From a virus (taxonomy: Duplodnaviria; Caudoviricetes): a DNA stretch of 54,040 nucleotides. The DNA lies in the IMG/VR virus record IMGVR_UViG_3300042869_000287, positions 1 through 54,040 of that record; one strand, written 5' to 3'. This document shows, piece after piece, positions 42,897 through 50,025 of this stretch (the stretch's first letter is position 1; each line of letters opens with the position of its first letter). The notes below the pieces were generated by a model. That model was given only the letters and a program-made list of their open reading frames with translations, was not told the origin of the DNA and searched no databases. The translations under genes were made by a program, and so were the position numbers.

Positions 42897-45290
42897 ATGA
42901 AATTTAGTCGGTTTATACAAGAGGCCAAAGGCCAGTCCAAGGTTATTGTCGTTTATGGCGGTGGTTTCCAACCATTTCACGCTGGTCATATGAGTAGTTA
43001 TGAACAGGCTAAACGTGCATTCTCATCTGCCGATTTCTATGTTGCAGCCAGCAACGACACCAAGAATCGACCAATCCCATTCAAAGACAAACAATTCTTA
43101 GCGCAACAAGCAGGCGTTAACGATAACTTTGTTCAGGTCTCACAACCAGTTAATCCAACTGAAATTCTATCACGTTACGATCCTAAGAAAGACATTCTGA
43201 TTCTTGTTCGTAGTGAAAGAGATCCTGTGAACTATACCAAAAAAGATGGTTCACCAGCATACTATCAACCATTCAAATCAATCAAAGAGTGTAAATCATT
43301 TGATCCAAAAGGTGGACATGGATATGTTTATGTAACGAAAAAACACATCTTCAAAGTAAATGGCCAAGAAGTTTATTCAGGCAGTCAAATACGTTCAATG
43401 TACACAAAGGCCGATGACGCTGGTCGTAAAAATATGATTAAAGATTTGTATCCAAAAGCCACAAAGCCTGCAAAATTAAAACAACTACTAGACAAATATA
43501 TCGGTGGCAATATGAAAGAATCAGCAGACGAATTATTTGAATCTTTGTTCGTTGAATCTGTTGATGATTCATTTGAGATACTACTGAGTGAAGGTGTACA
43601 TGATGCATCCATTTTCAAGGCAGTATTCTTAGCAGGTGGTCCAGGTTCTGGTAAAGATTATGTGCTTGACAATACACTTGCAGGTCATGGTTTAACAGAA
43701 ATCAATTCGGACAGAGCATTAGAGTTTATGATGGACAAACAAGGCCTTGATAAGAAGATGCCTTCTGCTGAAGAAGATAAACGTAACTTTGTTCGTGGTC
43801 GTGCAAAAACCATTACAGATTTGCGCCAACGTTTGGCATTGTTAGGTCGTAATGGTTTGATTATCAACGGCACTGGTGATGATGTTGAGAAAACTAAGAA
43901 GATTAAAGCAAGACTAGAAGAACTTGGTTATGATACCAAAATGCTTCTGGTTAATACACGTGATGAAATTTCTGCACAGAGAAACATTGAACGTGGCCAA
44001 CGTGGTGGTCGTGCCGTACCCGAAACAATACGTAAAGAGAAGTGGGATTCGGTACAGAACTCACGCACAGAATATGCCAAGTTGTTTGGTACAAACTACA
44101 TTGAGTTTGACAATTCGGAAGACTTACGTTCGGCAGACCCCGAAGTCGTAAAGCAAAAGAAAATGGAGTTGATGGATATCTTTAAGAACGTCCGTGAATT
44201 CACACAGGCGCCACCTAAGAGTGAACCTGCTGAGTTGTGGATTGCTTCTGAGATGGAACGCAAGAACAGGTTTGCAGTACCACCAAAACAGGCAGAGTTG
44301 TCCGCACATGCCGATGGCCAAGGTGCCGCAGCTGACCAAGCACACAAACTTGGTCTATCATACTATGGTTTTGGTCGTTATGGTAAACAAGGCAAAGTTA
44401 CACACCATACAGTCAATGGTAAGTTGGTTGAAGTGCCAAAAGAGAAACCAGGTGAGGTCAGTGTACCAACAACTGGTTCGTCAATGAAGAAAATCCAAGA
44501 GGCAGCATATACTGGTAATATCGGTATGATGGAAGTTATGAAGTTCCATCAGAAAGCCACACCAGAACAAAAGAAAGAGTTTAAATCGCACATGGCCAAT
44601 AACAAACACGGCGATGCATGGAAATTAATTCAAGATGTGTCTGGTGTTAAGTTGGTTGGTAAAGAATTCGAATCAAATGATAAATATGTTACTGATAAGA
44701 ATGGAAATCCTAGAATGTTTATGTTGCGCCGAAATGCAGCAAAAGAAGCACACACCAAAGATGGTGAAGTGGTGCAACAGGGTAAAGGTTATGTCGTCAA
44801 ATTAAAGGAGAATAAAAATGATGAGATTTTTCAAAGGACTATTGAGTCGCAAACAATCGGTACAAGAACCAGCTTTACTGAAGCCTTCGGTGGTAGTGGT
44901 GGAGTCAGTCGTGCCAGTGGTCGAAACACCTCCAGTGGAAGTTCCAGTGGCCGTTGTGCCACCTGTGGTAAAATCAACGAAGACTGTGGCTGCGAAACCA
45001 ATTCCACCAAAAAACTCACGCTCTCAAAAATCAGGGAACGCCAAGCCGAGAAAATCAAAGAGTCCATCGACAAAGGCATAGAACCTGGATTATCCATGGC
45101 TGCGTCTGGTGAAAGCATTGGGCGTGACATGGGTGAAAAGATTAAAAAAAGGACTGGTAAAGCATCACAGGTTGTAGAGATGCAAGGTGATGAAACCGGT
45201 GCTTCTATTGGTGCTCAAAAAGAAGATGAGTTGAAGAAAAAAGGTATTTCTTTGTTATCATTTAAATCTAACAAGGCGATTGGTGCATGA
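42897..45290 (+). CDS. HxGH nucleotidyltransferase + P-loop (zeta/PNK-like) kinase + small-domain multidomain protein
   Basis: GGFQPFHAGH, SGSQIR; AGGPGSGKD, INSD, RNIERG..GGR.VP; begins MKFSRFIQE. Confidence 0.8.
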   Translation: MKFSRFIQEAKGQSKVIVVYGGGFQPFHAGHMSSYEQAKRAFSSADFYVAASNDTKNRPIPFKDKQFLAQQAGVNDNFVQVSQPVNPTEILSRYDPKKDILILVRSERDPVNYTKKDGSPAYYQPFKSIKECKSFDPKGGHGYVYVTKKHIFKVNGQEVYSGSQIRSMYTKADDAGRKNMIKDLYPKATKPAKLKQLLDKYIGGNMKESADELFESLFVESVDDSFEILLSEGVHDASIFKAVFLAGGPGSGKDYVLDNTLAGHGLTEINSDRALEFMMDKQGLDKKMPSAEEDKRNFVRGRAKTITDLRQRLALLGRNGLIINGTGDDVEKTKKIKARLEELGYDTKMLLVNTRDEISAQRNIERGQRGGRAVPETIRKEKWDSVQNSRTEYAKLFGTNYIEFDNSEDLRSADPEVVKQKKMELMDIFKNVREFTQAPPKSEPAELWIASEMERKNRFAVPPKQAELSAHADGQGAAADQAHKLGLSYYGFGRYGKQGKVTHHTVNGKLVEVPKEKPGEVSVPTTGSSMKKIQEAAYTGNIGMMEVMKFHQKATPEQKKEFKSHMANNKHGDAWKLIQDVSGVKLVGKEFESNDKYVTDKNGNPRMFMLRRNAAKEAHTKDGEVVQQGKGYVVKLKENKNDEIFQRTIESQTIGTRTSFTEAFGGSGGVSRASGRNTSSGSSSGRCATCGKINEDCGCETNSTKKLTLSKIRERQAEKIKESIDKGIEPGLSMAASGESIGRDMGEKIKKRTGKASQVVEMQGDETGASIGAQKEDELKKKGISLLSFKSNKAIGA
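44818..45081 (+). CDS. Candidate overprinted gene (Pro/Val-rich, Lys-rich tail) in the +1 frame of 42897
   Basis: AAGGAG SD 7 nt before the ATG; coherent composition. Confidence 0.55.
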   Translation: MMRFFKGLLSRKQSVQEPALLKPSVVVVESVVPVVETPPVEVPVAVVPPVVKSTKTVAAKPIPPKNSRSQKSGNAKPRKSKSPSTKA

Positions 45291-45577
45291 AAACACTTAA
45301 ACAATTTATAGAATCTGCAGCTTGGCAGAGAAAAGAAGGAAAGAATCCTGAAGGTGGTTTAAACCGCAAAGGCATTGCTTCTTATCGTGCAGAAAATCCA
45401 GGTTCTAAACTATCGATGGCAGTTACAACTCCACCATCAAAATTAAAAGCCGGTTCAAAGGCAGCAAACAGACGCAAATCATTCTGTGCAAGGATGGGTG
45501 GTGTGGATGGACCGATGAAGAAGCCAAATGGCGAACCAACACGCAAAGCATTAGCGCTACGCAAATGGAATTGTTAA
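45287..45577 (+). CDS. Small basic protein (DUF6321-like) with internal-protein-like N-terminus
   Basis: MKTLKQFIE, AWQRKEGKNPEGGLN, RRKSFCARM, LRKWNC. Confidence 0.7.
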   Translation: MKTLKQFIESAAWQRKEGKNPEGGLNRKGIASYRAENPGSKLSMAVTTPPSKLKAGSKAANRRKSFCARMGGVDGPMKKPNGEPTRKALALRKWNC

Positions 45578-45601
45578 TAATAAATCAAAATAGGAACTAT
45601 C

Positions 45602-48818: not shown

Positions 48819-49238
48819 ATGACATTTAAATCATTCCTTAAAGAGTTCTATTCTATAGAACCTAATCAGGCCAAGGAAGCACACGAACCGACTGGTGAAT
48901 CTTCATCATCGGTTCAAAATCCTATTGTAGTATCCGAAATCAACGCTCAGTTGTATAGAGAATTGAACGTTGATGGGTTTAGAGTTGCACAAGATGGTAT
49001 ACAGAAAGTTCGTAAGGTATTAAATTCCTTTGGACTAGATATACCTGCGTTATATGAATTGGATGTTGAAGGTGACGAAATTACCTTTGACATTCATCAG
49101 TTTGACAATCCAGATAATATGGTTTATTTGTATTTGTTGTACTACCTATCAGACGCAGGTAATTACGAGTTTTATGCACAAGTAGGTGACGAAGAAACAA
49201 TTAACGCACTAGTCACCGAAGAACCAGAAGAAGATTAA
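48819..49238 (+). CDS. Acidic hypothetical protein with internal-protein-like N-terminus
   Basis: Begins MTFKSFLKE. Confidence 0.65.
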   Translation: MTFKSFLKEFYSIEPNQAKEAHEPTGESSSSVQNPIVVSEINAQLYRELNVDGFRVAQDGIQKVRKVLNSFGLDIPALYELDVEGDEITFDIHQFDNPDNMVYLYLLYYLSDAGNYEFYAQVGDEETINALVTEEPEED

Positions 49239-49630
49239 TGTCCTTTGATAATTTAAATAATGATAATATAATGTTATATGCAGCGAAGTCTTATGATAAG
49301 CCTGACTGCATAATGAGTGAGTTTAAGGAGGACATGAAGAGGTTTAACTACCTCAAAAGATTATTTCAGAGGTATCGAAGGTATGATGATATGCGTGAAA
49401 GGTTGGTGTTAAACCACCTCATCGTCATATACAATGTGTTTGGAGTAGAGGTTGCAACTAGAATGTTATTCTTTAAAGTTGCCAAAGATGATTATGCTGT
49501 ATTGAAAACGTATTTGTTATTTTTAAATTACATGCCACAGGTTATACGTGGCATTAAAGGACAAGATTTATTATCTTCTGATATTGCGGTTGATATGAGA
49601 ATCGCAGAAGTATTAAGGAACATAAAATGA
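49238..49630 (+). CDS. Hypothetical protein resembling a conserved T4-like family
   Basis: YAAKSYD.P, EF.ED.KRF.YLKRL, LNHLIV.YNVFG, LKTYL.FL. Confidence 0.75.
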   Translation: MSFDNLNNDNIMLYAAKSYDKPDCIMSEFKEDMKRFNYLKRLFQRYRRYDDMRERLVLNHLIVIYNVFGVEVATRMLFFKVAKDDYAVLKTYLLFLNYMPQVIRGIKGQDLLSSDIAVDMRIAEVLRNIK

Positions 49631-50025
49631 TAAAGTTTAATGAGTATACAGTTTTAGAAGAAGGTCGTCCTTCTCAACGCCATCCACTAGAAGGCCACGA
49701 ATATCATAGGAAGTCTGATGAGGCATTGATACACATTGCCAAAGATGCACACGAAGCTGCAGAAGCAATGAAGTCACACAATACTACGGCAGAGAACAAG
49801 TATCGTGACCAAGCAAATGATTCTGCAACAGTAAGACACTATCGCAAGACACATGGTATGAAAGATTGGTACAAAAAGAAATATGGCCACATGAAAGAAG
49901 ATGTACCAACTAACTCTGTTGGTACTGGTGCAGAGACTTCATTGCCACCATCAGTAGAACCTGGTGTTAAGAAGAAGAAAGTACCTTCATTCATTTCATA
50001 TGTACCACGTAGGACTCCTCAGTAA
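49627..50025 (+). CDS. Putative internal head protein
   Basis: MIKFNEYTVLEE, MKEDVPTN..G. Confidence 0.6.
   Translation: MIKFNEYTVLEEGRPSQRHPLEGHEYHRKSDEALIHIAKDAHEAAEAMKSHNTTAENKYRDQANDSATVRHYRKTHGMKDWYKKKYGHMKEDVPTNSVGTGAETSLPPSVEPGVKKKKVPSFISYVPRRTPQ

Follow-up and report, generated by a model that had tools for sequence, protein, structure and literature searches.

The stretch of DNA analyzed here (to be referred to as the window) is the whole of the IMG/VR record IMGVR_UViG_3300042869_000287, a linear 54-kb fragment (54,040 nt, estimated completeness 32%) of a T4-like, Kyanoviridae-type myovirus. Every long open reading frame (ORF) of the window is on the + strand, and its PHROG matches include a T4-type DNA polymerase, UvsX, a DnaB-like helicase, a clamp loader, and baseplate-wedge and tail-fibre proteins. 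The subject of this analysis is a gene cluster at positions 42897-50025, together with a separate gene at 19900-21132. Their products are made up of leaders that resemble the capsid-targeting sequence (CTS) of the T4 internal proteins and of small modules joined at hydrophobic-x-Glu sites, and they are likely to be cargo of the phage head. The genes and their main features are as follows.

19900-21132, + strand: p410 (410 residues), DUF6267 with the leader MKFSEFITE
42897-45290, + strand: p797 (797 residues), leader followed by a nucleotidyltransferase, a P-loop kinase and further small modules
42897-42923, + strand: p797 leader MKFSRFIQE, CTS-like, ending in Ile-Gln-Glu
43584-43592, + strand: internal Leu-Ser-Glu junction of p797, directly 5' of the kinase domain
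44328-44471, + strand: GYGRY module of p797, found directly behind the leader in T4-GC190 of cyanophage S-SM1 (45% identity, E 4e-7)
45287-45577, + strand: p96 (96 residues), leader MKTLKQFIE followed by DUF6321, a domain that is internal or C-terminal in longer proteins of relatives
45602-46687, + strand: p361, putative polyprotein with another conserved N-terminal peptide (..AKIMGE) and KEEVExIDE linkers
46274-46543, + strand: LSxxxLGxY module of p361, preceded by QQLDE
46684-48420, + strand: p578, putative polyprotein with at least five shuffling modules
46834-47094, + strand: DLRxWF module of p578 (residues 51-137), preceded by Met-Asn-Glu
47116-47256, + strand: KNxPT module of p578 (residues 145-191), preceded by Leu-Asn-Glu
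47257-47460, + strand: helical EYDxEGDMA module of p578 (residues 192-259), ending at Ile-Asp-Glu, with Glu259 nearly invariant
47860-48108, + strand: LSxxxLGxY module of p578, preceded by EQLDE
48448-48786, + strand: p112, conserved cluster member with no leader
48819-49238, + strand: p139 (139 residues), leader MTFKSFLKE followed by a strongly acidic protein (net charge -20)
49238-49630, + strand: p130, DUF7207, the conserved end of the cluster
49627-50025, + strand: p132 (132 residues), leader MIKFNEYTVLEE followed by the GRPSQRHPLEGHEYH module, which is internal in 344-631-residue proteins of relatives

Overall features of the cluster proteins

Two Pfam domains are found in p797, CTP_transf_like (residues 19-107) and a Zeta_toxin/AAA_33 P-loop kinase (residues 241-388). 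The HxGH-type nucleotidyltransferase motif (FHAGH) and the P-loop (GPGSGKD) are thus held in a single chain, as in NadR-like enzymes that combine an NMN adenylyltransferase with a kinase; for this chain the nearest sequences of solved structure are adenylate kinases (E 1.7e-5) and a choline-phosphate cytidylyltransferase (E 0.006). Pfam gives no match for p361, p578, p112, p139 and p132, and no peptidase family was found in the nine proteins with Pfam and PHROGs. A search of the ESM Atlas with p132 returns unnamed viral clusters only, with scores of 0.85 or below. For DUF6267, a sequence search of the Protein Data Bank (PDB) finds nothing below E 0.1. Its AlphaFold model has a mean predicted local distance difference test score (pLDDT) of 55.7, with the core below 50; there is a suspicion that its KWDG motif marks a ligase-like fold, and the model is too poor to search. 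Genes in the position of p112 are annotated as 'S-layer domain' in S-SM1 and 'tail fiber (virion protein)' in S-SCSM1, a correspondence of synteny in which homology was judged by eye only.

An earlier note on this DNA, made from the sequence alone, had described mostly basic domains with acidic linkers that end in hydrophobic-x-Glu. The listed linkers are all present, and the large proteins carry net charges of +24, +16, +9 and +20 while the short linker pieces are acidic. The unit LDELSxxxLGxY is also shared by two different genes as described, being located at residues 222-236 of p361 and 390-404 of p578. The make-up of p139, a CTS-like leader with an acidic body and no family match, is what would be expected of a DNA-mimic anti-restriction protein, although this is speculation.

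No close relative of 42897-50025 is found in a nucleotide search against isolated phages, the 31 records returned covering at most 3% of the query. By protein, the nearest named relatives are Pelagibacter phage HTVC008M, Methylophilales phage Melnitz and T4-like cyanophages, all of the Kyanoviridae. A scan of viral contigs with p797 yields 53 loci, five of which are truncated at the contig end and 48 have an intact N-terminus. The full HMMER search with p578 finds 5843 cluster representatives at E≤1e-3, 2364 at E≤1e-10 and 288 at E≤1e-30. The ORFs of the cluster are long, conserved and syntenic across dozens of contigs.

Leaders resemble those of T4 internal proteins

The five similar N-termini pointed out in the earlier note (at 19900, 42897, 45287, 48819 and 49627) are present as described, and each ends in hydrophobic-x-Glu. 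Their identification as T4-type capsid-targeting leaders agrees with the leaders read from the T4 record, where IPIII and IPII start with MKTYQEFIAE, while IPI starts with MKTFKEF and reaches ..ITE at residue 19. In T4, the first 10 residues of IPIII are enough for packaging, targeting depends mainly on residues 4 and 7 and processing on residues 8 and 10, and CTS-like leaders occur on other basic proteins in related phages (PMC9026906; for this and the other papers cited, statements refer to the accessible part of the text). The window leaders keep the T4 spacing of the key residues and are one residue shorter. Leaders of exactly ten residues are found in homologs, MKKFSAFLNE in S-SM1, MKKFSAFLTE in S-RIM2 and MKSFLQFLKE in S-SCSM1, with Phe at positions 4 and 7 in S-SM1 and S-SCSM1.

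The leaders are conserved among relatives. An MKF..F/L..E leader is kept in 43 of the 48 p797 homologs with an intact N-terminus, even before a different transferase subfamily; the other five, from small fragments of much larger phages, begin directly with the transferase domain. The leaderless transferase homologs (L043-L048) were considered as a natural control and rejected, because these fragments (8-25% complete) of much larger phages say nothing about their protease. All 18 full-length homologs of p410 from related IMG/VR loci and from G002, a complete relative of 172 kb, have a leader of the same form ending in hydrophobic-x-Glu (17 with MKF, one with MDF).

The slot between leader and kinase is filled by either of two nucleotidyltransferase subfamilies (GGGFQPFHAGH and AFGRMNPxTxGH), with the leader and the kinase staying the same. 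The swap is seen at 42951-43217 of the window and in the homologs of L016, L022 and L045. The GGGFQPFHAGH-type copy of the larger-phage fragments (L043-L048) is leaderless.

Modules are joined and shuffled at hydrophobic-x-Glu sites

Hydrophobic-x-Glu is found immediately before each of six unrelated conserved modules, whether the module follows a leader or is part of a longer protein. For the junction test, an anchor pattern was defined for each module and all of its occurrences were collected, with a junction counted if P1 is Glu and P3 is Leu, Ile, Val, Met or Phe. The background rate of this arrangement is 2.6% per position (1912/72844). Among distinct contexts in the related loci, it is found for GRPSQ(RHP) in 14/14, DUF6321 in 12/15, DLRxWF in 20/20 and KNxPT in 17/17 (63/66 in all), the three DUF6321 exceptions having the site shifted by one residue. 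In a diverse set, the best 150 of the 5843 HMMER representatives of p578, the counts are 23/23 for GRPSQ, 2/6 for DUF6321, 70/84 for DLRxWF and 110/110 for KNxPT (205/223 in all). The Glu-containing linkers, which the earlier note took for domain boundaries, therefore coincide with the boundaries in homologs. In addition, [LI]xE precedes LSxxxLGxY in 14/14 contexts and the kinase in 22/22.

The earlier note had also proposed to test whether the units are shuffled between relatives at the linkers, and hydrophobic-x-Glu does mark the points of fusion and fission. The modules of p96 and p132, encoded by stand-alone genes in the window, are internal or C-terminal in proteins of 125-631 residues elsewhere (BLAST against the ORFs of the loci). 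The p578 module at residues 49-137 is found inside p797 homologs of other phages, three p578 modules have a permuted order in G002, and p578 modules are located at widely differing positions in HMMER-matched proteins of 160-1045 residues. Similarly, the order of the GYGRY module and the transferase domain is permuted between p797 and T4-GC190 of S-SM1.

Leaders and internal linkers can replace each other before the same module, as in MIKFNEYTVLEE|GRPSQ versus ..KEEVELQE|GRPSQ and MKSFLSFQE|DLRNWF versus ..GMIKE|DLRKWF (with the bar indicating the junction). Moreover, the stand-alone kinases of Melnitz (MKTFAELQE|GVYDP..) and HTVC008M (MIPFILKE|GLYDP..) start exactly at the position of ..EILLSE|GVHDA.. 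in p797. Fusion, fission and reordering of modules between relatives fall exactly at hydrophobic-x-Glu sites, so that this sequence logic coincides exactly with the module boundaries.

The number of [LI]xE sites modestly exceeds that of shuffled sequences for p797 (12 versus 6.4±2.3), p361 (7 versus 3.3±1.7) and p578 (10 versus 4.0±1.9). The KEEVExIDE/EQLDE linkers (45770-45796, 46007-46033, 47836-47862 and their equivalents in the loci), known here at the protein level, may double as short stretches of shared DNA where modules recombine.

Predicted structure of p578

The AlphaFold model of p578, based on 49 input sequences, has a mean pLDDT of 64; in it, short helical modules alternate with segments of pLDDT below 50. 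Six of the ten [LI]xE sites are located within two residues of such a segment, and Glu291, Glu392 and Glu538 are positioned directly before the first helix of a module. A Foldseek search of the PDB with this model finds nothing at E≤0.001.

The prohead protease and a natural control

A gp21-type protease (Peptidase_S77) is encoded in four of five related records, including both of the complete genomes (172 and 214 kb). Of the 154 G002 proteins ordered by [LI]xE excess, the protease is 2nd and the scaffold protein 3rd, and the propeptide of the capsid protein as well as neighboring core-like proteins carry [LI]xE-type sites. The head proteins of this clade therefore look themselves like T4-type substrates.

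T7-like podoviruses are not known to have a prohead protease. DUF6321 is present in all four T7-like podoviruses examined, which infect SAR11 and Synechococcus. There it is a stand-alone gene of 72-82 residues between the scaffold and capsid genes, and the protein has no leader and no hydrophobic-x-Glu, starting instead at the conserved core. The four genes are as follows.

L076, 2887-3105: podovirus DUF6321
L077, 2851-3099: podovirus DUF6321
L082, 1534-1773: podovirus DUF6321
L083, 583-819: podovirus DUF6321

As a natural control these genes point in the right direction, four cases being few. Their placement between the scaffold and major-capsid genes, in pelagiphages and one cyanopodovirus, hints at a head-internal role of DUF6321 across phage families.

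Homologs are present in cyanophage virions

Homologs of the cluster proteins have been detected in three cyanophages. The 'cytidylyltransferase' T4-GC190, of the cyanophage core, was found in purified S-SM1 virions (Sullivan et al. 2010, PMC3037559). This protein (SSM1_190) has a leader at its start and matches the transferase domain of the p797 homolog of G002 (E 8e-42). The transferase domain in the window (GGGFQPFHAGH type) belongs to a different subfamily (E 0.18 to T4-GC190). The cytidylyltransferase ORF154 of S-CREM2 and the next two ORFs are in its virion proteome, and the authors suggest encapsidation (PMC10665884). For S-SCSM1, an NMNAT was observed in the virion, and NMNAT-like proteins are stated to be found often in cyanophage virions (PMC9602691).

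In the GenBank record of S-SCSM1, gp90, gp91 (NMNAT, a name given by annotation only), gp92 and gp93 of the syntenic cluster are marked as virion proteins, as is gp29, the gene of which adjoins the terminase gene. The gp29 protein has DUF6321 at its end and VSE, MTE and VSE before its modules, while gp92 has a KEEVELDE linker. The proteins of cluster T4-GC119 in S-BM3 and S-B68 show the same modules and the same junctions.

Promoter-like motifs

Late-type promoters had been proposed in the earlier note at 42858 and 48416. Motifs are indeed found at both positions, but they read CATAAATA instead of the canonical TATAAATA.

42858-42865, + strand: late-promoter-like CATAAATA, 39 nt before the p797 start codon (ATAAATA core 38 nt)
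48416-48423, + strand: late-promoter-like CATAAATA, 32 nt before the p112 start codon (ATAAATA core 31 nt)

The placement is suggestive; the count in the window (3 observed, 4.9 expected) is not above chance. The canonical motif has one occurrence in the window, far from the cluster. ATAAATA cores are also located 29 nt 5' of the gene at 18569 and 12 nt 5' of the gene at 52963.

Interpretation and alternatives

We consider it likely, with a good deal of room for doubt, that the genes at 42897-50025 and 19900-21132 encode phage-head cargo of the T4 internal-protein kind in the form of polyproteins, targeted by leaders and cut by a protease. The cluster genes would be expressed late, and a T4-type leader would take the proteins into the scaffolding core of the prohead. 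Such a leader would have about 9-12 residues, with two aromatic or aliphatic positions three apart, followed by Ile, Leu, Val, Met or Phe, any residue, and Glu. A gp21-type prohead protease would remove the leader and also cut after hydrophobic-x-Glu in the acidic linkers between modules. The products, small and mostly basic proteins along with the nucleotidyltransferase, the P-loop kinase and DUF6267, would stay with the DNA in the mature head and be released into the host together with it.

The steps of this proposal differ in strength. Packaging is well supported, because homologs are present in published virion proteomes and are marked as virion proteins in GenBank. Arguing from T4, we infer that the leader targets the proteins and, strongly, that the prohead protease cuts them; their delivery into the host is plausible by analogy only. 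The small modules are each preceded by a T4-type load-and-cut signal, and therefore this group of phages probably packs shuffled mini-proteins and enzymes. The loading of polyproteins, as put forward in the earlier note, agrees with the leaders and with the homologs in cyanophage virions, but not with p361 and p578, which have other conserved N-terminal peptides in place of an MKF-type leader.

This last point is one of several that weigh against the proposal. The cyanophage DUF6267 homologs have no leader, no Peptidase_S77 gene is found in the window (a fragment, 32% complete), and the cluster is located far from the head genes in G002. A leader pattern written post hoc matches 5/64 window genes, one of them unrelated, and misses p96; in G002 it matches 8/239 genes versus 13/875 control positions, which makes it a weak genome-wide detector. 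The module anchors were placed by eye after the pattern had been seen, and homologous contexts are not independent samples. In the diverse set, P1 of the DLRxWF junction is Glu in 84/84 contexts, but P3 is Thr, His, Ala or Gln in 14 of them, and the DUF6321 site is at the exact position in just two of the six contexts. It could simply be that the modules themselves include the junction Glu and the EEVELxE stretch as conserved parts. A predicted helix of p578 contains two [LI]xE sites, Glu233 at its start and Glu243 inside. By [LI]xE count, p797, p361 and p578 rank 1st, 4th and 5th among 50 window proteins and the clamp loader 2nd (z 3.0); the motif count alone is therefore not specific. Finally, the three virion studies (PMC3037559, PMC10665884, PMC9602691) report presence from tryptic digests, and leaders or cleavage are not mentioned in their accessible text.

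Some of these observations would fit with multi-domain, DNA-associated proteins inside the virion that remain uncut or lose just the leader, the linkers being kept for charge balance, helix capping or as shared recombination DNA. EEVExLxE recurs before unrelated modules and could travel with them, some sites are inside predicted helices, and the proteomes report presence only. We nonetheless regard this as unlikely, since the same module can follow either a leader or an internal linker, genes are naturally split exactly after the Glu, the motif is of the site type described for gp21 in the accessible text of T4 reviews, and the podovirus versions of a module are without the site.

It is still less probable, and by a wide measure, that the proteins are no head cargo at all but late or middle cytoplasmic or tail-associated proteins, whose similar N-termini reflect a translation-start preference or a common short N-terminal helix. 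The weak genome-wide enrichment of the strict leader pattern in G002, the promoter-like motifs that are not above chance and the distance of the cluster from the G002 head genes would all be expected in that case. The homologs in purified virions of three cyanophages would not, and neither would leaders that match those of T4 internal proteins at functionally mapped positions, or the podovirus DUF6321 between scaffold and capsid genes. A chance result or gene-calling artefact can be given hardly any credence: the [LI]xE counts are only about twofold above shuffles, yet 205 of 223 diverse contexts fit against the 2.6% background, and dozens of contigs share these long ORFs in conserved form and order.

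As for the function of the putative head cargo, a general function, connected with the packaged DNA or with the first minutes of infection, fits at least as well as a fast-evolving anti-defence payload, because the modules are widespread (5843 representatives) and the transferase homolog is a cyanophage core gene. A much broader picture is possible but doubtful. A combinatorial cargo may be common to the T4-like phages of cyanobacteria, SAR11, OM43 and freshwater hosts, with thousands of proteins being beads-on-a-string precursors. The prohead protease would free their modules, which would enter the host along with the DNA as a first wave prepared in advance (NMNAT-like transferase, P-loop kinase, DUF6267, strongly acidic protein). 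Some modules might pre-empt defences such as NAD+ depletion or restriction, and the linker would serve both as cut site and as recombination joint.

Comparison with known systems

The T4 proteins IPI, IPII, IPIII and Alt share with the cluster proteins a leader some 10 residues long in which the key positions agree, a hydrophobic-x-Glu end, basic mature parts and a gp21-type protease (here in relatives), and the comparison covers these features. In T4, each cargo protein is encoded by a separate small gene and cut once at the leader, with Alt being cut C-terminally as well (PMC9026906). Here, by comparison, a single polypeptide strings together several unrelated modules and enzymes, each junction has its own site, and the modules are reshuffled between phages.

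Polyvalent proteins (Iyer et al. 2017, PMC5512222) also have unrelated domains in one polypeptide, with predicted packaging in the capsid and delivery with the DNA, and that paper draws an analogy with viral polyproteins. A mix of domains of this type is present in p797 (transferase, kinase and further modules) and in p578 (at least five modules). Polyvalent proteins are described as being released by embedded peptidase domains, whereas none was found here and release would be by a separate prohead protease at T4-type sites. The word 'cyanophage' does not occur in the accessible part of that paper.

The inner-body and ejection proteins of phiKZ, 201phi2-1 and SPN3US are head-internal as well, and a gp21-related protease cuts many such proteins behind the Glu of short motifs, in some of them at more than one site (PMC9026906). 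The phages in question are jumbo phages, their motif and protein families are not those seen here, and cleavage there removes propeptides, rather than separating shuffled modules as proposed here. Among the cyanophage proteins, T4-GC190 of S-SM1, ORF154 of S-CREM2 and ORF91 of S-SCSM1 have the same gene cluster, leader type and Pfam superfamily as p797 and were detected in virions. The GYGRY module is common to T4-GC190 and p797. The window transferase is of another subfamily than these proteins and is fused to the kinase and further modules.

Each part is known by itself: the logic of the T4 leaders, jumbo-phage internal proteins that are cut by a protease, polyvalent proteins, and NMNAT-like proteins associated with the virion. 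Their combination, T4-type sites at every junction of shuffled multi-module proteins in marine and freshwater T4-like phages, has no match in the literature searched. That search, with subscription journals and supplements outside its scope, gave nothing on capsid-targeting leaders or polyprotein processing in cyanophages or pelagiphages.

Few viruses of the sea and lakes are as abundant as Kyanoviridae-type phages, and dozens of their conserved 'hypothetical' or 'virion' proteins have no assigned role. If the proposal is correct, one rule would explain the presence of such proteins in virions, the limits of the real functional units and the differing domain orders between genomes. It would also extend T4 capsid targeting from single small proteins to polyproteins, and predict the enzymes that reach the host ahead of all phage gene expression.

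Neighboring genes

A 443-residue protein (18569-19900, phrog_1462) is encoded directly upstream of DUF6267 and is homologous (E 7e-28) to gp90 of S-SCSM1, a GenBank-marked virion protein. Many relatives have an extra leaderless gene of 413-554 residues, inserted after the second cluster gene and ahead of the p361-like gene (for example L005, 8778-10442; L024, 13375-14616; L051, 2325-3632), which is absent from the window. Directly 5' of the cluster, positions 37255-42873 hold a sugar-related block with two glycosyltransferase-like proteins and a HAD-hydrolase fusion, as well as three genes matching unannotated PHROGs only or nothing.

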